This document shows positions 1 through 44,704 of a stretch of DNA of 64,000 bases, in pieces. A model generated the notes under the pieces. It was not told the DNA's origin, searched no databases, and saw only the letters and a list, made by a program, of their open reading frames with translations. Location of the stretch: assembly GCA_000004985.1 (NCBI GenBank), contig GG738851.1; one strand, given 5' to 3'. Positions within the stretch are counted from its first letter, which is position 1. Every line of letters begins with the position of its first letter. A program made the position numbers and the translations under genes. This DNA is from Naegleria gruberi (Eukaryota).

Positions 1-241
1 AGAATGCATAGGAAAAGGGTTTCTTGGTTCTCAAATTATTGACTGCCTTTTTAAAAACGTCCTTTCTTTGTTTGAGAGCTTGGAGAATGTTACATCTCTG
101 CTTCTCAACCACCAATTTGTACGCAAGTTTGACATCAGTGAGGTTATTTTCTGTCATTCATAAACTCCTTTGTACGAGAAGAATTCTTCCCCCACTTGGA
201 TTTTTGGAGTGCTTTGCGAACTCTCTCTATACTCTGAGTTA

Positions 242-1141
242 TCAGTAATGAGTGGAGAAGCTTTTGCAGGCCTGGAAAATTGTTGACAGAGAATCCGGAT
301 CCGTTAAGGAATCTTGGAATGAGCCCAACTCAAAATTGGAGATCTTAGCATTATTCGAATCAAGGGCATCATTATAACCTTTCAAGTTAAACTTAACATT
401 ATCAAATTTAGATTGAAAACAAGGAAGAGGAGCGCAATTAAATAAAGGCAACTCGACACACAACATCTTATGTTGCAGGAACATTTCAACATCCCAAAGT
501 CGGCTAGGAGCATGGAATGAGGAAATGATATGATCAGGTCTAGTAAGGTACGGACGGTCCGATCCTCTACTAAGCTTGAATGAGGGACGAGTAGGAGTGG
601 GCGTGAGATCTGATAGATTATACAGCTCCAGCCAGTCTTTGAGAATTTTGGCCTTTTTCTTAATCTTACCATACAGTGTGTTGATATTGAGGTCACCTAG
701 GATTACAATATGCTCGTTATGAAACATGCACTCATCTATCAACTCACTTAATCGGTTCAGTAACTTATTAAATGGACCACCAGTTTTATGATATCCATAC
801 CAATTAATCACATTGACTAATCCGTGATCACACTCAAGGACTGACAAACGACCTTGAATTATTTCCTCAAAAGAAATAATCTTTCTTTGAAGAGTTCCTT
901 TAACTATTGTGATAATACCAGCAGATTTGTCTTTGGGATCAGCATGGGAAGCATAAACTTTGCATGGAGAAAAAAACTTTGCGCATTTAGTGATGTTATC
1001 CTTAATCTCATCAGGTTTCCAATGAGATTCTTGGATGCAGGCAATATCAAGTCTCTCTTGCTTGATAAGGCCAAGGAGAATGGCTTGCTTGTCTATGGAG
1101 AATGAGGAGAGATTACAAGAAGCCATTTGAGTTCCTCTCAC
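242..1141 (-). mobile_element. Non-LTR retrotransposon ORF2, N-terminal APE-type (EEP) endonuclease domain. The ORF ends at the TGA at 242-244 and no intact RT follows in the last 240 bp of the window, so the element may be frameshifted or decayed distally.
   Basis: The translation has the EEP/APE endonuclease layout near the N-terminus: ...LLGLIKQERLDIACIQESHW..., then GDLN, then SDH-type motifs (..HIVILGDLNINT.., ..PTRPSF..). This resembles the R1/TRAS/L1 EN domain (DIALIQEPW-like). The true ATG at 1124-1126 (MASCNLSS) lies 13 nt downstream of the ORF1 stop on the same strand, which is typical bicistronic LINE organisation. Confidence 0.75.
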
Positions 1142-2450
1142 TATTGGTCGTCGTCAGAAAGATCAGCCTTCTTCGAGCTGCCCTTATTGGCACTCGGAGA
1201 GGTATGATCCTTCTTTGAGACCTTTTTACGCTTCAAATCATCACCTGAGTTCGGCTTATTCAAAGTACACACTTCATCAATCCTGTTTTCAACTCCCTTA
1301 ATGAAAGAGAGGTGTTTTTTGAGTTCAAGACTGTGTCTATCAATAGTCGGACAAATAACTTCATCTATGCATTTTTGTTGAGATTGATTTGTCTTCTCTA
1401 CAGCATTATTAGAGCTGTCCAATTTTGAAATTTTAGATTGGAACTCTGTGTGTTCAGTTGAGTTAGTGGAAGACATTTTCAACAATTCATCCTTGAGTGA
1501 GTCAACACTCTTTGTGAGATCATCAAAGACCTTAAAGAGTTTTGTTGTTTTGTCACTCAAATCACTGAGTTGAGCTGGTTGGCTCTTTGAGAACACTGCT
1601 TCCTTATTTAAATTAGCAGTAATAGTATTAAGGTTCTCTAATTCAGTGGATAACTTTGCCACATTGGAGGTGAGATTAGCAACATCGGTTTTAAGTGAGG
1701 AATTTTCAAGAGATAGTTCATTAATTCTCTTTTCAAAATCCTTCTTGAGGTTGTTAAAGTCATCCTTTGAGACAAGGTTATCAAGTACCTTAGGATCGAT
1801 ACTACCACCAGAAGAAGTAGGGATCATTGTGGAACATTTTTGTTGGATCAGCTCCGTAACTTTGGTCAAAAGTGTCGGCTTACCTAATCTTGGATTAAAT
1901 GATAAGTTTTGAATAGTAACTGAGTTCACATAAAGTACTTTGGAGACAGAAGCATTTACAAGGTGGTCCTTTTTAATTTCTGCTTGTATTAAATTACCAA
2001 GGCCGTTGACTTGGATATGTTCTGAAGGAACTTTCCAAGTAGTTGAAATGCTTTGTTTCAATTCCTTCCAGTCAACAGTGGCATCTGGATGCCACTTAAG
2101 TCTAAATGTTGTCACGGAAGTGTCAATTTCTGAAAGAAAATCGGGTTTATTATCAACAACTGCATCCTTAGTAGATACAGCCCAGAACCGAGTAGAAGGA
2201 GTATAATTCATACCAACAATATCAGGAATATGTTCAAGCACCTTACTTAAAGATTCACACCCAAAATCAAGCTTAATTTGGTATTTCACTGAAGCATGCA
2301 CTCTTTGCAGAAACATGTATCCAACCTTATTAGGGATGGTAGACCATGCATTAACGGCTTCTAGAGCATAGTTGTGAGTTACAAAATAAGCAAATGCAAC
2401 ATCCTTGTGATCATTAGGGATTTGAATGCCATGTACTTGATTAGCAGCAA
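1141..2450 (-). mobile_element. Retroelement ORF1, 5'-incomplete at the assembly gap. It has an N-terminal globular region, a central coiled coil and a basic C-terminus.
   Basis: A long minus-strand ORF terminates at the TAG at 1141-1143, immediately upstream of ORF2. The translation contains a heptad-like coiled coil (LKKDFEKRINELSLENSSLKTDVANLTSNVAKLSTELENLNTITANL) and a K/R-rich tail. The track extends it as (GL)n only because the frame runs into the (CCCAAA)n array; that portion is not real coding sequence. Confidence 0.5.
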
Positions 2451-2490
2451 NNNNNNNNNNNNNNNNNNNNNNNNNNNNNNNNNNNNNNNN
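2451..2490. other. Assembly gap (40 N) between the retroelement 5' end and the telomeric-type repeat
   Basis: A run of n characters. Confidence 0.95.
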
Positions 2491-2926
2491 NNNNNNNNNN
2501 CCCAAACCCAAACCCAAACCCAAACCCAAACCCAAACCCAAACCCAAACCCAAACCCAAACCCAAACCCAAACCCAAACCCAAACCCAAACCCAAACCCA
2601 AACCCAAACCCAAACCCAAACCCAAACCCAAACCCAAACCCAAACCCAAACCCAAACCCAAACCCAAACCCAAACCCAAACCCAAACCCAAACCCAAACC
2701 CAAACCCAAACCCAAACCCAAACCCAAACCCAAACCCAAACCCAAACCCAAACCCAAACCCAAACCCAAACCCAAACCCAAACCCAACCCAAACCCAAAC
2801 CCAAACCCAAACCCAAACCCAAACCCAAACCCAAACCCAAACCCAAACCCAAACCCAAACCCAAACCCAAACCCAAACCCAAACCCAAACCCAAACCCAA
2901 ACCCAAACCCAAACCCAACCCAACAA
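2491..2926. repeat. Telomere-type hexamer array (CCCAAA)n on the + strand, i.e. (TTTGGG)n on the - strand. About 70 units are nearly perfect, with one 5-nt CCCAA unit near 2786 and decay at the right end (CCCAACCCAAC).
   Basis: Read directly from the sequence. The C-rich strand runs 5'->3' on + here, as expected for a left chromosome end. Confidence 0.9.
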
Positions 2927-3124
2927 CTGACAAGAATAAGTGCTTCCGCTCCTACAAAGAATATTCAATATTACCCACTTTATATTTAATAAATTATACA
3001 ATATCTTGATAATTATAAGAACAATATATGATTTTTATTGTCGGAATCATCACTAAATCATGCTACCCATCCAGAAATATCAAAGGGTACATTTCAATAT
3101 CACTCTATTGTATGAAAGTGTATA

Positions 3125-3618
3125 AAACTCACCCAAACCCCACCAACCCAAACCCTTGTAAAAATTCCTTAATAATTTTGAAATATTCAAAGTTCAGTAA
3201 GATTGCAAACAATTTACTTTGTTGAATAGTGTATTACAGCCTCATCACATTGCTCGATCAGGAACTTTTTTGAAAAGAAGCAACGGGTTTGAGCCACTCC
3301 AAGCTCATTTGAAATAGTTTCAAGTCGTTTTTACATCGGGTTGGATGACAACCACTGTTTTAAAGATTACAGTTGTGAAAAATCGACTAATCTCAGTCAT
3401 TATTAAGATTTTGAGTATACTCCATTGGAATGTTACCATCTACATACAGTTTAGAACATTTTCCAACCACTTGTAAAACTTCCTTAATTATTGTGAAGTA
3501 AGAAAAGTTCAAAGAATGCAAAAATTTTAATTTGTTGTATAGTATAATACAGTCTCATTCAAAAGGTTGGATAAGTCTCTTTTTTGAAAAGAAGCAACGG
3601 GTTTGAGCAACTCCAAGC
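3125..3618. repeat. Telomere-associated tandem repeat of ~315 bp. Two copies are visible before the gap, preceded by a degenerate telomere-like motif (CACCCAAACCCCACCAACCCAAACCC at 3125-3162).
   Basis: Several blocks recur with a ~315 bp offset. The block 3150-3240 (..cccttgtaaaaattccttaataattttgaaatattcaaagttcagtaagattgcaaacaatttactttgttgaatagtgtattacag) recurs at 3464-3553. The block 3236-3310 (..tttttgaaaagaagcaacgggtttgagccactccaagc) recurs at 3551-3618. Confidence 0.8.
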
Positions 3619-5360
3619 NNNNNNNNNNNNNNNNNNNNNNNNNNNNNNNNNNNNNNNNNNNNNNNNNNNNNNNNNNNNNNNNNNNNNNNNNNNNNNNNNN
3701 NNNNNNNNNNNNNNNNNNNNNNNNNNNNNNNNNNNNNNNNNNNNNNNNNNNNNNNNNNNNNNNNNNNNNNNNNNNNNNNNNNNNNNNNNNNNNNNNNNNN
3801 NNNNNNNNNNNNNNNNNNNNNNNNNNNNNNNNNNNNNNNNNNNNNNNNNNNNNNNNNNNNNNNNNNNNNNNNNNNNNNNNNNNNNNNNNNNNNNNNNNNN
3901 NNNNNNNNNNNNNNNNNNNNNNNNNNNNNNNNNNNNNNNNNNNNNNNNNNNNNNNNNNNNNNNNNNNNNNNNNNNNNNNNNNNNNNNNNNNNNNNNNNNN
4001 NNNNNNNNNNNNNNNNNNNNNNNNNNNNNNNNNNNNNNNNNNNNNNNNNNNNNNNNNNNNNNNNNNNNNNNNNNNNNNNNNNNNNNNNNNNNNNNNNNNN
4101 NNNNNNNNNNNNNNNNNNNNNNNNNNNNNNNNNNNNNNNNNNNNNNNNNNNNNNNNNNNNNNNNNNNNNNNNNNNNNNNNNNNNNNNNNNNNNNNNNNNN
4201 NNNNNNNNNNNNNNNNNNNNNNNNNNNNNNNNNNNNNNNNNNNNNNNNNNNNNNNNNNNNNNNNNNNNNNNNNNNNNNNNNNNNNNNNNNNNNNNNNNNN
4301 NNNNNNNNNNNNNNNNNNNNNNNNNNNNNNNNNNNNNNNNNNNNNNNNNNNNNNNNNNNNNNNNNNNNNNNNNNNNNNNNNNNNNNNNNNNNNNNNNNNN
4401 NNNNNNNNNNNNNNNNNNNNNNNNNNNNNNNNNNNNNNNNNNNNNNNNNNNNNNNNNNNNNNNNNNNNNNNNNNNNNNNNNNNNNNNNNNNNNNNNNNNN
4501 NNNNNNNNNNNNNNNNNNNNNNNNNNNNNNNNNNNNNNNNNNNNNNNNNNNNNNNNNNNNNNNNNNNNNNNNNNNNNNNNNNNNNNNNNNNNNNNNNNNN
4601 NNNNNNNNNNNNNNNNNNNNNNNNNNNNNNNNNNNNNNNNNNNNNNNNNNNNNNNNNNNNNNNNNNNNNNNNNNNNNNNNNNNNNNNNNNNNNNNNNNNN
4701 NNNNNNNNNNNNNNNNNNNNNNNNNNNNNNNNNNNNNNNNNNNNNNNNNNNNNNNNNNNNNNNNNNNNNNNNNNNNNNNNNNNNNNNNNNNNNNNNNNNN
4801 NNNNNNNNNNNNNNNNNNNNNNNNNNNNNNNNNNNNNNNNNNNNNNNNNNNNNNNNNNNNNNNNNNNNNNNNNNNNNNNNNNNNNNNNNNNNNNNNNNNN
4901 NNNNNNNNNNNNNNNNNNNNNNNNNNNNNNNNNNNNNNNNNNNNNNNNNNNNNNNNNNNNNNNNNNNNNNNNNNNNNNNNNNNNNNNNNNNNNNNNNNNN
5001 NNNNNNNNNNNNNNNNNNNNNNNNNNNNNNNNNNNNNNNNNNNNNNNNNNNNNNNNNNNNNNNNNNNNNNNNNNNNNNNNNNNNNNNNNNNNNNNNNNNN
5101 NNNNNNNNNNNNNNNNNNNNNNNNNNNNNNNNNNNNNNNNNNNNNNNNNNNNNNNNNNNNNNNNNNNNNNNNNNNNNNNNNNNNNNNNNNNNNNNNNNNN
5201 NNNNNNNNNNNNNNNNNNNNNNNNNNNNNNNNNNNNNNNNNNNNNNNNNNNNNNNNNNNNNNNNNNNNNNNNNNNNNNNNNNNNNNNNNNNNNNNNNNNN
5301 NNNNNNNNNNNNNNNNNNNNNNNNNNNNNNNNNNNNNNNNNNNNNNNNNNNNNNNNNNNN
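3619..5360. other. Assembly gap (1742 N). True size and content are unknown.
   Basis: A run of n characters. The same repeat family is seen on both sides of the gap, so it probably holds more repeat copies. Confidence 0.95.
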
Positions 5361-5402
5361 TTTTAATATTGGCCATTAATAAAATGGTAATGGGTTTTCG
5401 CC

Positions 5403-5421
5403 ATACCCAAACCCAAACCCA
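5403..5421. repeat. Short (CCCAAA)3 remnant after the gap
   Basis: cccaaacccaaacccaaacccc is read directly from the sequence. Confidence 0.8.
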
Positions 5422-5439
5422 AACCCCGAGGTAAACTAT

Positions 5440-6480
5440 AACTTTTGAGTTTATCATCAAAACATATTGAATCCTGACATGAAAATGTTCCATTTGATGA
5501 GTATACATCGAATATCAAATTTATTTTAACTTTCATATTTACAGATTTCTTCCCTCAACCATCAAGGTCAACTAGGGATGAAAAGGAGGAAATCTGGAAA
5601 AAGGACCACCTATTGAAACTTTACCAAAATGATTTATATGATCTATAGTGATATAGATTTCAATTTCATATCATAAGAATTAGAAATGGTACCATGGGAA
5701 AGTAAATGTTGATTTTCCAAAGTTGACTGAAAGGAAAGACAAGTCAGACCAAGTCTATCAAATATATCACTTCAATCAACAAATTATATATGAAAATGCT
5801 CCATTAGATGTGTAGAGATTGAATATCAAGTTTATTTTAACTTTCATATTCAAGATTTCATCCCTTTCATACCATCTAGTCAACTGAGTAACACGGATGA
5901 AAATCTGGAAAATGACCTCTCTATGAAACACTTCCATCATGTTTAACAACTCAAATAATGTTGTAGAATTCAATTTTAGAGTTTTAAAATGTAATTTGAC
6001 AATATAGTAAGGTAAAGGTTGATTTTTTAATGTTGACTTTAAGGATGGAAAGGTGAAAATCATGATATCAAAAACATCACTCCAGTCAATAAAACACATA
6101 TGTAAATGTTGCAAATGATGAGTAGACACCGAATTTATCATTTATTCTAACTGGAAATATATCTAATATATACTTGGAAGTCAACTCTCGCTATAATGTA
6201 CAAGCTGTTCGGCCAAGTTACCTCTCTCAAATTAAATCATATAATCATGCTATAAATCTCTAATAATGTATATACTTCAGTTTTCAGACGTTATAGTGAA
6301 CATTCCATCATATAGTAAGGTAAGGAGTGATTTATCAACGTGGACTTTGAAGGATAGGGTTATATTCAATAAGAGAACTACATCCTCAATCAGAAAAATA
6401 CATATCAATCGATTGTAAATCGATAGTACATCTCGAAAATATCATTTATTTTATGATTTGAAATCTCTCCTTGACTTCTT
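5440..6480. repeat. Degenerate subtelomeric satellite with a ~300-310 bp period, at least three diverged copies
   Basis: Blocks recur with a 300-310 bp offset at roughly 70-80% identity. The block 5505-5610 (tcaaatttattttaactttcatatttacagatttcttccctc...gaaaaggaggaaatctggaaaaaggaccacctattgaaac) recurs at 5815-5925. The block 5700-5815 (aaatgttgattttccaaagttgactgaaaggaaag...atgctccattagatgtgtagagattgaatatcaag) recurs at 6010-6140, and again at 6320-6450. Confidence 0.7.
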
Positions 6481-6529
6481 TTAGTCAATTAAGACAATTA
6501 AGGATGTAACAATAGAAAAAGTTGACAAT

Positions 6530-7660
6530 CTCAAAATAAACTTTATTATCATGTAGTACATCTCAAATAAAGTGGACTTTATTCAAATTATATACTTTTA
6601 TTTCAAGAAATGCATCCAGTAGATAGTACTTGGTGATCTGTCAAAGTGGCTAGAAATCTGAAAGGTCCAGAAGCAAGTCTGTTTTCAAAGAAATTGATAT
6701 AATGACATATAATCACTCTAATTAGTCATGTGGTATCAATTTACTGAATACCTTAATGTCGACTCAACTTTTAACAAGATGGCACTCCATCTCATCCAAT
6801 TCAATATATGTATTACAAATATCATATATGAATAGAATCCTGAATCGAATACTCTTGATGCGTAGAACAATCTGAGAAAGTATCATACTCATGACTCAAT
6901 TCCTCTTGATCATTGTTGTACTTTTCATTCATGCGTAGATAAAAAATAACGTACATTCAAAAATACTCTCAAAAATTCTACGCATCAATATGAATGACAA
7001 CCAAATTGATTGAATGTAAGTCCGTCCGCAAAGTGACGCAAAGTAACGGAATATCGAAATCGTTACTACTTTCGAATAGCTTGAAAACAACACATTTACA
7101 CCACAACTCGATAACTAGATAAGAACTATATACTTTTTTTAAAACTTTACTAAAAAAACCAACAAAATACCCAAACGGCGCTTAATAACCCTATATCAGA
7201 TCATAAAGACCATGGAGCCACAGAAGAAACAAATCAAAACAACACGTTTCCAAACCCTTCAACCCAACCATCATAACTTGATATATATAAATATTTAACA
7301 ATTTCACATCAGCCGTATATTGTGCCCCATTACCATCACCATCTTTTGACATCATTTGTGATATATATTGTTAATGTATTTAAGGAGAAAAGCTTAATAA
7401 ATAGGGGTTGACATGGGATCCAAACCCTAAGGAAATATAAGGAAAGTTACCACTCTCAAAATAAATGATAATATCGTGTTCTACATCTCAAATAAGGTGG
7501 ACTTTCATCAAATTATATGTTTTCATTTCAAGAAATGTATCCAGTAGATAGTACATGGTGATTTGTCAGGGTGGATTGATGGAAATCTGAAGGGTCCAGA
7601 AACAACTCCATTTTCACTGAAATTGATATCATGATATGTAGACACTCTAATTAGCATATA
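6530..7660. repeat. Pair of ~190-bp related segments spaced ~920 bp apart (6530-6720 and 7450-7660). A further related pair sits at 6850-6900 and 8128-8180.
   Basis: The sequence ..aaataaagtggactttattcaaattatatacttttatttcaagaaatgcatccagtagatagtacttggtgatctgtcaaagtggctagaaatctgaaaggtccagaagcaagtctgttttcaaagaaattgatataatgacatataatcactctaattag has a close copy at 7490-7655. Confidence 0.7.
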
Positions 7661-9468
7661 ATATCAATTTCATGAATATTGGCTCAGTAGATATTGAGTT
7701 GTCAACTCTATCACTATACTATAAAACTTTGACATAAATTCAAAGATTATGCTCTAAATCACTTATTTTATATGAAACTAGTCTAGAATTGATAACACAA
7801 ATTCTGTACACCATTTATATACATCTATACAAGTTTAGAAACAATTCATGATACTTTCATTCAGTCAATCAGTAAATGTTCAATGTCAATAGTGATTATA
7901 TCCAATTGTACACACTGTCTCAATGAAAGTATATCCAAACATCATGTAACTTTACCAGATACATTTAGTCACACTGATATACATCTGGTATCAATTTTAG
8001 TCTGTTAGAATTGAATTCAATATGATAATAATAACAATCTGTCAAATTGTCACATTTCAACATATAGAATGAATACCATCTCAGTCAATTTACAAAATAT
8101 CATACTAGTATCAAAAATGAATACACTTCCCTTGATGAGGAGAACAATCTGAGAAAGTTTTATATTCATGGCTCAATATCTTCAAGTCAACTAAGGAACA
8201 TCTAAGGTAATCAAAAGGGAAGAATCTTAATTCCAAAATTAAATTTTACCATCATGTCAAAATCATTGAATAATGCATTAATTATACAAGAATAATATAT
8301 TCAATTGTTATATTCATGTCAGTAATCAGTGATGGTGACACTTCTTTAACCTTAGTATGCACATCTCAATATGTAGACAGTCAATTCCACTGAAACTTGA
8401 AATATTACCTGTCTAGATGATATAATGATGATTCTCCATAGTAACATGCATGTGAAATTGAATGTTGACTCTTTTCATCTGGTTATATTTATAGAGATGG
8501 TATCCAACAGAGTCAGTTCATAATATTAAATATTGAAACTCATTCTGTATGACATATTTGATGTATAGAATTGTTTTTATATTGATGGAAATCAGTTTGA
8601 AATAATACGATGAAATTGACACGGTCTAGTCGCCATTACATGACAAATAGACCATAGTTTACATTCCATCTCAGTCATTTCAGCGATTTATTGGTTAATT
8701 CCACCACCATTATATTTCTCATACATTTTAGTACAGTTTATATTTGAAGAGTGATTTCTGTGTAGATTATTATAATCGTAATACCTTGCAATACCAATAA
8801 AACTCAATAGAAGTGTTAATTCTTCTCATTTTCAAATAGATTATTCAATATAGAACACATCTAGATAGTTTCCAGATCATAAAAGTCAAGCTACTATATA
8901 TGGTCTTTGATTAAATTTAAAAATAGACTGCCGTTAATTACTGGAATCTTGATTCAAAGCTTGATGAGCAAGCTATTGATTGAAATCAAACCGATTATTG
9001 AATATTGATTATTGAATAAGTGAATAATCACTCTTGATAATGTTACTTATTCATATTGCATGCAAATCAACCTGATTCAATCTACAAAGGTTGGTAGTTG
9101 CACCACTTCGTGGCGAAACTACCATTCCACGATGAATCAACAAAGAATCACTTACATTCAACTCAATTTGACCGTTATAATCAATAAATCAATGAAATGT
9201 TCCTTTATTAGCAATACCTATTCAATCTAATGAGTAGATTCACGTCCCAAACATTTGGCTTCTCAAAGTCCATATTTCAAAAGTTGATACTGACCTGACC
9301 TTTATATATCTATCAATATAAGAAATGAAACCATCAAATTTACATCATTAATAGATGATAAGAAATATAATCAATGATATGAATCTTCACTAAGTAATCT
9401 CTTAAATAACCCAAATAAATCAACTCTGAATCCTAACCAAACCCACAAGAATAACAGAATATTGCTTC

Positions 9469-42509: not shown

Positions 42510-44219
42510 ATGTTTGACAAGCCAAGTAATCTCTGCTCTCAGTCTTTTGATATTGAAAAACAAGTTTGCTTTTCCAACTCCTCTGATACTGATGTGGTCG
42601 ATTTGTTTTGGATTGATTATTCGGGTGCTGAGGTTTTTATTAGTACCATTGCTCCAAAGCAACAAGTTGGACAGAAAACCTTTGCTACTCATCCCTTCCT
42701 GATGAGAAGTTTATTGAGCAGAAAGATTGTGGGCTTGTTTGTGATTGATGAGCAATTGCCCGATCGATCAACATTGAAATATGGTGAAAATAATTATAAT
42801 ACAAGTGGCAACAGTAAAAGTAGTGGTGGAATGATTCCTACACCTGGTGATGCTCCACCTCGTTTGTTTGAAAAGATTACTTATAGAAATAGTATTGTAG
42901 GAAGTCAAGATCAATATTATGGTTTGAAATCAGCAACTGGAACTTGGCCTGCAGAGCTACATGTAAAGAATAGAACTGGACATAATTTGGAGTCTTATTG
43001 GATTGATTTTGAAGGTAATTTGAGAAGTTATGGAATTTTGGATTCTGGAAAGAATTTTGATAGTATGAGTGGACATGGTCATATCTTTCTTTTCAAAACT
43101 CCTGATGGTTCCTATCAGAAGATAATTACTGCCTCATCTGAAAAACCTTCTCAATTCCTCGATCCTGATGAAATTGAAATTACTGCCTCAGTGATAGATT
43201 CACCTTCAGAAACTAGTTGTCACTCTATTCTTGAGAAGCATATTCAAGGAAGGTGTGGACGTGCACTCAAGTTTTTCACTGAACCTCACATTGATCGGAT
43301 CATTTCAGAAATTGAAACCAAACTCAAACAAGAAGGAAAACGATTCATTGATGAAGACTTTTTCCCAGGAGATAATTGGAAGAGAGCTAGTGATTATTTC
43401 AAAAATCAAGCCAGTATTTTCAAAGGTGATATTTCTCCAAAAGCACCAATACAAGGAGGAGCAGGTGATTGTTGGTTAATCCAATCAATGAGTGGAGCAG
43501 CCACCTTACCAGACAAGATTAAGGAAGTATTTTGCAAGTGTGAACATATTGATCCATCATTGGGATTGTTTGTCTTGTCTTTCCATTCAACAGATGGTTC
43601 AAAAATATTCATTCTCTTGGATGATTACTTTCAATTTACATCAACCAATTTTAAATGTTCAAGGAGTAGTACAGTTGGAGAATTGTGGGTTCCGTTAATT
43701 GAGAAGGCATTTGCAAAACTGTGTGGAAGCTTTGAATCCCTTCATCCAGTTGTTGGAAATCATGGTATTAATCCTGCTGAAGTGTTGTTGTACTTATTAA
43801 GCGGCAAAAATGGTAAAAACATTCAATGGTACTCTGCTGAGGGGAAAACTATAATCTCTCAGGGAAAATTCTATCCACTCGTGGAGAGTTTATTGGACAG
43901 TAAAAAGAGCGTACCAGTCTGTACCAGTAATGCTAATACCAAGGAGGGCTATGTTGATGAGTATGGAATTGTTCACTATCATGGATATTCCATGTTGGGT
44001 TATAGAAAATATCCTCAACACGGCATCAATCTTCTCCACATAAGAAATACATGGTCCAAACAGGAATGGAATGGTTTGTGGTCTGATAATTGTGTACAAT
44101 GGGCCAAATATCCTGATATTGCCAGTGAACTGAGAAGTGTTTCAGAAGATGGATGCTTTTGGATATCATATGATGATTTTGTAAATCACTTTTGTGTACT
44201 TTGGTGGAATGAATTTTAA
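42510..44219 (+). CDS. Calpain-type cysteine protease (catalytic core only, no penta-EF-hand), 569 aa
   Basis: The catalytic Cys motif is QGGAGDCWLIQSMSGAA. The His region is VHYHGYSMLGY. The Asn/Trp region is IRNTWSKQEWNGLWSD. Confidence 0.7.
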   Translation: MFDKPSNLCSQSFDIEKQVCFSNSSDTDVVDLFWIDYSGAEVFISTIAPKQQVGQKTFATHPFLMRSLLSRKIVGLFVIDEQLPDRSTLKYGENNYNTSGNSKSSGGMIPTPGDAPPRLFEKITYRNSIVGSQDQYYGLKSATGTWPAELHVKNRTGHNLESYWIDFEGNLRSYGILDSGKNFDSMSGHGHIFLFKTPDGSYQKIITASSEKPSQFLDPDEIEITASVIDSPSETSCHSILEKHIQGRCGRALKFFTEPHIDRIISEIETKLKQEGKRFIDEDFFPGDNWKRASDYFKNQASIFKGDISPKAPIQGGAGDCWLIQSMSGAATLPDKIKEVFCKCEHIDPSLGLFVLSFHSTDGSKIFILLDDYFQFTSTNFKCSRSSTVGELWVPLIEKAFAKLCGSFESLHPVVGNHGINPAEVLLYLLSGKNGKNIQWYSAEGKTIISQGKFYPLVESLLDSKKSVPVCTSNANTKEGYVDEYGIVHYHGYSMLGYRKYPQHGINLLHIRNTWSKQEWNGLWSDNCVQWAKYPDIASELRSVSEDGCFWISYDDFVNHFCVLWWNEF

Positions 44220-44704
44220 ATGGATTGTTATGGTGTAACCGTACCAATCACAAGCCTGTCTCCAACCTTTGAAATGCTATCATTGAAACTCAGATCGCGA
44301 TCCAACAAAATTATCAATGAGTTGTATACAATGACTATAATTGACATAATTGCACTCTCCTTCTGGAGAAACTCTCTCTTGTCTTATTATCAGCAAAGAC
44401 TCCTCTACTTTAATCTCCACCACTCAATTATAGGATAGAATTTGATGGTCAACCCATAATGGAATTCTGAATCCAAATCCATTGTTAAATCATCAAACTT
44501 TTGAAGAATATTTTGCAAAGTTTAACAACAGTTTACATTTTAGAAAAGAGAAGTGTACCTCCAAATATTTGGCGTAGTGAAGATTTCCAAAAGAACAACA
44601 CTCAAACGCTGAACCGAAACTTATTGTTGGTTGTAGACCTCGTCTCTCAGGTCTTTACGATACAAGAGACGTTAATAAATATTACAATTTATATGTTAAA
44701 CTAG

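Follow-up and report, generated by a model that had tools for sequence, protein, structure and literature searches.

The left end of a 693,645-bp scaffold of Naegleria gruberi NEG-M (contig GG738851.1) carries a long interspersed nuclear element (LINE) drawn immediately outside a (TTTGGG)n telomeric array, which raises the question of whether this element is specialised for telomeres. The window we analyzed is the 64,000-nucleotide stretch at that end, and a preliminary description of its sequence had proposed that the LINE is a candidate telomere-associated retrotransposon of the kind without long terminal repeats (non-LTR). We are highly confident that the window contains a genuine, young copy of a heterolobosean LINE with a disabled second reading frame. 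Telomere targeting by this element, however, is unproven, since it is joined to the array only through an unsequenced gap and its relatives occupy ordinary chromosomal sites.

The element lies on the minus strand at 1-2450 and comprises a partial open reading frame 1 (ORF1), a short spacer, and an ORF2 of which the endonuclease (EN) and part of the linker toward the reverse transcriptase (RT) are visible:

1141-2450, minus strand: ORF1, codons 90-524 of 524, with its TAG stop at 1141-1143; 98.6% identical to the intact ORF1 P0073
1127-1140, minus strand: inter-ORF spacer of 14 nt, TGAGAGGAACTCAA, by direct reading of the sequence
407-1126, minus strand: APE-type EN domain of ORF2, amino acids 1-240, ATG at 1126; recognised by family profile, Pfam and the fold predicted by AlphaFold2 (AF2)
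1-406, minus strand: linker of ORF2 from EN toward RT, truncated at the window edge and carrying three frameshifting indels, by three-frame comparison with the intact ORF2 P0079

No stop interrupts the ORF1 frame between the contig edge (2448) and 1144. Its first 89 codons lie beyond that edge, and only 6 of the 435 visible residues differ from P0073. Its layout is an N-terminal region followed by a heptad coiled coil and then a basic/acidic tail. The heptad-periodic segment (about 1411-1764) gives 45 windows scoring at least 0.6, whereas 200 shuffles yield 0.3 such windows on average and never more than 15. Pfam returns weak matches to coiled-coil families only, and the AF2 model of ORF1 reaches a mean predicted local distance difference test (pLDDT) score of 37, while the protein can be aligned with the ORF1s of the Willaertia magna and Naegleria fowleri copies described below. 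The reading frames and the heptad test thus confirm the minus-strand, bicistronic arrangement with a coiled-coil ORF1 that had been read from the sequence; the spacer, earlier given as 13 nt, counts 14, and a metagenome relative (L001) has an 11-nt spacer at the same position.

In Pfam the EN has a match to Exo_endo_phos (1e-4) that does not reach the curated cutoff, and the RT lies outside the window, so the identity of the element is settled by intact homologues. A search of the ORF1 sequence identified P0073, an intact ORF1 of 524 amino acids on a 5552-bp European Nucleotide Archive (ENA) contig, and an RT search identified P0046, a 982-residue ORF2 whose contig has the same size. P0079, from the same cluster as P0046, is an ORF2 of 1133 residues on a 5015-bp Logan contig and matches RVT_1 in Pfam at 1.4e-33; P0074 is encoded on an NCBI contig of 1245 bp. 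The ENs of both ORF2s are essentially identical to that of the window, and intact copies about 99% identical to the window copy are present in other public assemblies. Intact ORF1 consists of a basic N-terminus, an N-terminal domain, a coiled coil and a charged tail, and intact ORF2 of an APE endonuclease, a conserved linker, an RT with a YADD motif and a Cx2Cx7Hx4C (CCHC) knuckle. This order of ORF1, EN, linker, RT and knuckle is common to the copies from W. magna (L006, L007), N. fowleri (L005, L009, L010) and a metagenome (L008), the RT motifs of the relatives reading FRPIVVLP, QRGF, LDIKNAYGSV, GVPQGDP and YADD. In P0046, P0079, L006 and L008 the conserved RT motifs (FRPI, QxGF, DxxxAYxxV, GxPQG, YADD) stand downstream of the EN in the same ORF; in the window copy the RT would lie off the left edge. 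A family profile built from nine ORF2 sequences is furthermore colinear with human L1 ORF2p across EN and RT (E 5e-36). On this homology, the window element is a bona fide non-LTR retrotransposon of about 5.1-5.5 kb with intact copies, as the preliminary description had supposed.

The profile search of the whole library returned 32 relatives, nearly all from Naegleria, Willaertia or metagenomes. A scan of JGI (Joint Genome Institute) metagenomes yielded only distant animal LINEs sharing the motif ILGDLNIN, and no family members were found in a viral scan or a prokaryote-genome scan. The family is specific to heterolobosean amoebae (Naegleria, Willaertia). Our literature search on Naegleria LINEs, telomere elements and telomere tables found no specific description of it, and we did not find this heterolobosean LINE family described in the searchable literature.

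Judged by the 98.6% identity of its ORF1 to intact copies, the window copy is young, but its ORF2 is disabled by three frameshifts. Compared with P0079, the linker has gained about 7 nt at 292-298, lost 8 nt near 221 and gained 4 nt at 154-161, a net change of +3. These indels account both for the four stops (TGA TAA, TAG, TGA) clustered at 160-244 and for the later return of the original ORF2 frame, which resumes past them and exits at the window edge; accordingly, the intact peptide SLTD-LCQQFSRPAKASPLITDNSEYRE-LERVRKALQKSKWGKNSSRTKEF-MTENN is spread over frames 0, 1, 2 and 0. The EN itself differs from intact copies by an in-frame deletion of 6 nt near 836-838, with loss of the residues KL. 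The earlier suspicion that this copy is frameshifted was well founded. The stop at 242 that had been taken as the end of the EN reading frame does exist (242-244), but it is a product of the frameshifts and not the end of ORF2, and the lack of an RT in the remaining 240 bp, correct as an observation, is explained by the window edge. An intron as the cause of the stops at 160-244 is ruled out, as the intact protein is encoded across three frames, which identifies indels. Poor base calls at the contig end were also considered; the changes span 4-8 nt rather than single bases and are more likely real. A linker motif, NILQALKQRKDVFKKAVNNLRTKKPFSYAF, is common to the window, W. magna, N. fowleri and metagenome copies, and the conserved linker pattern RK..F...VNNL..K.P.S..F is present at 2-90 of the window.

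The catalytic residues of an APE-like endonuclease (N, E, Y, D-x-N, D and H) are all found in ORF2, namely N5, E33 (in IQESHW), Y110, D145/N147 (in GDLN), D198 (in PDHI) and H219, and align to N14, E43, Y115, D145/N147, D205 and H230 of L1, which bears out the assignment to the APE type. They differ at a single point: where the EN 'SDH' motif has Asp, Gln stands here (LQHKM, 466-480, residues 217-221) and Q, S or A across the family, with the His kept. That an EN without this Asp still works is shown by three N. fowleri copies with clean target-site duplications (TSDs) and 96-99% identity along 4.5 kb.

The EN had been credited with an R1/TRAS-like motif, DIACIQESHW, but IQESHW is the generic QE(T/S)H of all APE-type nucleases. 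A four-sequence EN profile found no matches in the PDB; the deeper nine-sequence ORF2 profile was required, and it matches the L1 EN alone at about 1e-9. For the AF2 model of the window EN (pLDDT 77, predicted TM-score 0.78), the 11 best-ranked PDB neighbours are all human L1 EN (E 5e-12, TM-score about 0.68), with APE1 and ExoIII next. Neither TRAS1 nor R1Bm EN, both with structures in the PDB but of unconfirmed presence in the searched library, is among the PDB sequence matches at E <=10 or the top 50 fold matches. ORF1 (P0073) contains no CCHC motif, unlike the gag-like ORF1s of the R1 clade, to which TRAS and SART elements belong. The generic motif, the proximity to L1 EN and an ORF1 without CCHC mean that the R1/TRAS-like assignment is not supported. 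By profile and by predicted fold the EN is nearest to that of human L1. The RT region of the ORF2 profile scores higher on R2 proteins (4e-53) than on L1 ORF2p (5e-36), and the best RT matches outside Heterolobosea, at 23-28% identity, are mixed arthropod elements and plant L1-type elements. Set against the L1 clade, the features observed are therefore an L1-nearest EN, an RT profile that favours R2, relatives without poly(A) and an ORF1 that departs from the L1 order of coiled coil, RRM and CTD.

To the right of the element the window has the following organisation:

2451-2500, unstranded: scaffold gap of 50 N that separates the LINE contig from the telomere contig, by N-run scan
2501-2923, plus strand: telomeric array with the C-rich strand on plus, 68 CCCAAA and 3 CCCAA units; Tandem Repeats Finder (TRF) gives 70.8 copies at 99% match
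2924-6500, unstranded: gene-free subtelomere of degenerate tandem repeats of about 310 bp, from repeat families D3, D4, D7 and D8 (spacing 304-314) together with sequence reading

Seventy occurrences of the CCCAAA pattern are counted in the array where 0.41 would be expected by chance, and TTTGGG is the candidate N. gruberi telomere repeat proposed from scaffold ends (PMC3622300). The (CCCAAA)71 array is real, and its C-strand polarity fits a left chromosome end. The array of roughly 70 units reported at first is confirmed. Short telomere-like CCCAAA blocks recur within the subtelomere at 3131-3155 and 5406-5424, the repeats of about 310 bp are interrupted by a second scaffold gap of 1742 N (3619-5360), and no genes occur rightward of the array until about 9.4 kb. 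Array, repeats and gene-free stretch together are the anatomy of a genuine subtelomere, and with the C-strand on plus they bear out the polarity first assigned to this end, with the 3' end of the LINE toward the terminus. A further pair of subtelomeric repeats, about 925 bp apart, lies at 6518-6725 and 7443-7654.

LINE and array are on separate contigs, and the bases of their junction are not sequenced; telomeric repeats are seen on one side of the copy, beyond the 50-N gap. The statement that the element sits beside the telomeric array thus stands as regards both parts and their orientation, but no sequenced junction connects them. The gap between them had been given as 40 N, where the scan finds 50, and the ORF1 frame had been thought to run straight through it into the repeats. 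This continuation is an artefact: the gap is a placeholder, its length cannot be divided by 3, and (TTTGGG)n has no stop whichever frame is read; moreover, intact ORF1 begins MAKHKN, 89 codons beyond the contig edge, and not with Gly-Leu repeats. Since the missing 267 nt of ORF1 and the 5' untranslated region (UTR) are too long for a nominal 50-nt gap, with at least about 220 nt of ORF1 left over besides the UTR, either the window copy is 5'-truncated or the gap is mis-sized.

How the family behaves elsewhere was assessed in five relatives with 10-kb flanks, three from N. fowleri and two from W. magna. In N. fowleri they are found at 68-89 kb out of 564 kb, 101-122 kb out of 562 kb and 215-236 kb out of 584 kb, and in W. 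magna at 84-106 kb out of 183 kb and 55-76 kb out of 377 kb. Within the extracted loci the elements occupy:

L005, 9720-14360: N. fowleri copy
L009, 9843-14513: N. fowleri copy
L010, 9722-14375: N. fowleri copy
L006, 8806-13640: W. magna copy
L007, 8580-13436: W. magna copy

All five are interstitial, between housekeeping genes, and none has a run of at least two TTTGGG/CCCAAA units within 10 kb. TSDs of 17-19 bp that start with a T-run were found at four of them (TTTTTTTTAAAATATT, TTTTTTCCTTGTTTAGAG, TTTTTTTTTCGCAATTT and TTTTTTGCTTTTGTTTT). Telomere specificity is thus contradicted for the wider family. The window itself also holds a trace of the family away from the telomere:

44219-44432, plus strand: decayed LINE relic of about 215 bp from the C-terminal region of ORF2, with SFWRNSLLSYYQQRLLYFNLHHSII; tblastn match of P0079, E 9e-9, 50% identity over 66 amino acids

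This relic, matched by P0075 as well (1.6e-13 on a sub-region), is intergenic, beside a calpain-like gene and 41 kb from the telomere. Interstitial sites, T-run TSDs, the lack of nearby telomeric repeats and the relic at 44.2 kb together point to dispersed insertion at A/T runs as the habit of the family. A weaker, borderline relic candidate is seen at 9096-9203 (plus strand), just upstream of the gene that comes first on the chromosome arm.

The ends of the relatives are distinctive. Their 5' ends begin GGG, about 15 nt ahead of the ORF1 ATG, and their 3' ends read AATAAA..CC..TTA with no poly(A), a combination that suggests an unusual 3'-end recognition and promoter arrangement. The TSDs of four relatives and a 5' inversion in one N. 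fowleri copy are marks of insertion by target-primed reverse transcription (TPRT), which leaves no LTRs, TSDs of variable length and 5' truncations or inversions; the window copy lacks both ends. Given the 96-99% identity among the three N. fowleri copies, the family looks recently active in that species, in which LINEs as a RepeatMasker class make up 1.85% of the genome (PMC6831594). In one of these copies (L010 9722-9828, compared with L005 9841-9943) the first ~100 bp are present as an inverted duplicate, 100% identical and on the opposite strand, which looks like a twin-priming 5' inversion, and the last ~30 bp of another copy lie just upstream of the TSD of the same locus. Of the W. magna copies, L007 stops 65 bp upstream of a cluster of tRNA-His / tRNA-Ser / tRNA-Ala genes (L007 13501-14015) and L006 has a tRNA-Leu about 1 kb away, while no tRNA gene is near the N. 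fowleri copies. Targeting of tRNA genes as by the Dictyostelium TRE elements was ruled out, with one of the five relatives adjoining tRNA genes. The metagenome contig L001 diverges abruptly from its sister contig L008 after NNPLGDKP and enters an unrelated long open frame (1640-2035), which may reflect an insertion or a chimeric assembly; a transposase-like nature of this tail found no Pfam support.

Taking these observations together, we favour, with some reserve, the view that the window copy is an ordinary LINE of the dispersed type that landed opportunistically in or next to terminal (TTTGGG)n or was scaffolded there via repeated terminal sequence. The TSDs of the relatives show movement by TPRT, with the EN presumably nicking the primer strand just after an A-run; such a nick would yield a duplication of 17-19 bp with a sense-strand T-run at its start. 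The telomeric C-strand would offer an AAA-3' nick site every 6 bp, and priming there predicts the orientation that is observed, namely a sense strand that continues the G-strand and a proximal 5' end. The JGI scaffolder set the LINE contig, a terminal contig of its own, outside the genuine left telomere of the scaffold; this would be either because the copy landed by chance in or beside the terminal tract or because clone-mate links attached the contig to repeated terminal sequence.

Several observations weigh against this view, and some of them speak for a dedicated telomeric-repeat-targeting LINE that would work like SART1. The EN of the N. gruberi subfamily would then nick the CCCAAA strand specifically, and copies would gather in telomere arrays with the sense strand on the G-strand. 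The sole visible NEG-M copy of the subfamily (P0012, the one member of its 90% cluster) is the telomere-linked one, scaffolded beside the 71-unit array across a nominal 50-nt gap, and it is young. Its orientation is the SART1-like one expected for insertion into a repeat tract and fits C-strand priming by standard TPRT geometry, although by chance alone it had an a priori probability of one half. Scaffolders normally need several clone links, which makes proximity to terminal repeats likely. The relatives with context, furthermore, belong to other species and subfamilies (EN ~35-60% identical), leaving room for a telomere-specific sublineage in N. gruberi, to which we give little credence. We consider dedicated targeting quite unlikely as a whole: the LINE-array junction is not sequenced, and telomeric repeats flank none of the five relatives, which are interstitial and have T-run TSDs. 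The family relic at 44.2 kb, an EN nearest to L1 EN by profile and fold with no match to TRAS1 or R1Bm EN, and an ORF1 without the CCHC knuckles of the R1 clade argue in the same direction.

The join could also be a scaffolding artefact, the 2.45-kb contig having come from another chromosome end or an internal site and been linked through clone mates in sequence that recurs at chromosome ends (the telomere array or the 310-bp repeats) or through chimeric clones. The contig next to it (2501-3618) contains nothing but telomere repeats and a degenerate repeat that chromosome ends probably share, and is parted from unique sequence by the gap of 1742 N; the assembly is a 2010 Sanger draft of 1977 contigs in 784 scaffolds (PMC6831594), and beyond a genuine telomere only repeats would be expected. 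The LINE contig, on the other hand, looks like a distinct and, given its private indels, probably copy-specific sequence, which makes random mis-linking less likely, and even a join to the wrong end would still put the copy within clone length of terminal-type repeats somewhere. We regard this explanation as rather unlikely. Far less probable still is an extension of the chromosome end itself, by terminal addition or healing as with HeT-A/TART or Penelope, in which LINE RNA would be reverse-transcribed directly from the 3' G-overhang. It would account for a LINE drawn distal to the array, but priming from the G-strand predicts the sense strand on the C-strand and the 3' end beside the proximal repeats, whereas by the sequence read and standard TPRT geometry it is the G-strand side that carries the sense strand in the window, and the proximal end is the 5' one; N. 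gruberi, in addition, keeps telomerase-type repeats.

The source of the window was established through five intronless ORFs identical to NEG-M proteins on the one 693,645-bp scaffold (for example XP_002680995.1 and XP_002681162.1). These exact matches, together with long standard-code ORFs across the window, ruled out a ciliate genetic code, at which TTTGGG and the TAA/TAG stops had hinted (Paramecium). The LINE is itself represented in the reference annotation by XP_002681148.1 / EFC48404.1 (P0012, 640 amino acids, a JGI model covering 242-2330), labelled only 'predicted protein'. This model starts at an internal Met of ORF1 and is fused to ORF2 through a spurious intron that deletes the C-terminal tail and stop of ORF1, the spacer and the first 11 codons of ORF2. 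The minus-strand genes to the right of the LINE are EFC48407, EFC48414 and EFC48418, in that order, and this numbering makes it very probable that EFC48404 comes first among the minus-strand genes of the scaffold and that the window starts at or near the scaffold start. If the two starts coincide, leftward extension is impossible within the NEG-M assembly. Exact-protein look-ups for the window ORFs, P0012, P0010 and P0016 gave no record of a leftward extension or of further N. gruberi copies.

As the evidence stands, the value of the locus lies in the unusual traits of the family, namely the lack of poly(A), the T-run TSDs, the 5' UTR of about 15 nt and the altered SDH motif, and in family copies that look recently active in the pathogen N. 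fowleri. It also draws attention to two points in the reference, a mis-modelled ORF1-ORF2 fusion in the annotation (XP_002681148.1) and a doubtful terminal join of LINE contig and telomere contig in the assembly. That an N. gruberi subfamily inserts orientation-specifically into (TTTGGG)n, its L1-like EN nicking after the AAA of the C-strand, seems to us improbable; if true, a LINE of a deep-branching protist lineage, Discoba, would have evolved telomere-repeat targeting independently and at a great distance from TRAS/SART of arthropods and the Drosophila elements, and this would open the question of how an EN that nicks at A/T runs gains repeat specificity. Should the telomere link prove real and recurrent, the system would be a tractable one, as N. 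gruberi can be grown in culture and could be compared with close relatives in which the copies are dispersed.

Among known sequences, the closest to the window element are unannotated LINE relatives from N. fowleri (XP_044557025.1, XP_044558479.1, XP_044565330.1; adjacent RVT_1 models), W. magna (KAL9641820.1, KAL9655518.1) and N. gruberi itself, where XP_002669590.1 represents a second LINE subfamily. They share with it an ORF1-like domain, APE EN, linker, RT and CCHC knuckle, and match the EN profile at E-values of 1e-54 to 1e-26. They differ in belonging to other subfamilies, with ENs about 35-60% identical to that of the window, and the N. fowleri and P0016 type has an ORF1 that is apparently fused to ORF2 and lacks the long coiled coil. 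Those with context occupy interstitial sites and have T-run TSDs, in contrast to the window copy with its scaffolded place next to a telomere.

With human and mammalian L1 the element has in common a bicistronic layout with a short spacer, an ORF1 coiled coil, a CCHC motif after the RT and colinear EN and RT domains. L1 also provides the nearest solved EN structure and has TSDs of 15-19 bp at a homopolymer run. In contrast to L1, the relatives of the window element have no poly(A), a T-run and not an A-run opens their TSDs, and their 5' UTR measures about 15 nt. In ORF1 of the window element the N-terminal domain comes before the coiled coil and not after it, the family RT favours R2 (4e-53 versus 5e-36), and the SDH Asp is replaced by Q, S or A.

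SART1 and TRAS1 of Bombyx mori are APE-type LINEs of the R1 clade that are specific for telomeric repeats. The window element resembles them as an APE-type LINE beside telomerase-type repeats, with its sense strand continuous with the G-strand as in SART1. It differs from them in lacking a sequenced junction, copies in a fixed register and a CCHC ORF1; its relatives are dispersed, and in the searches made its EN is not close to TRAS1/R1 EN by sequence or fold. HeT-A, TART and TAHRE of Drosophila belong to the Jockey clade, and their 3' ends point to the centromere. In the scaffold as drawn, the window element shares with them a position at the extreme chromosome end. Their orientation is the opposite one, however, and where their arrays replace telomerase repeats, N. 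gruberi keeps simple telomeric repeats, no head-to-tail array is present, and it is the 5' end of the LINE that faces the 71-unit array.

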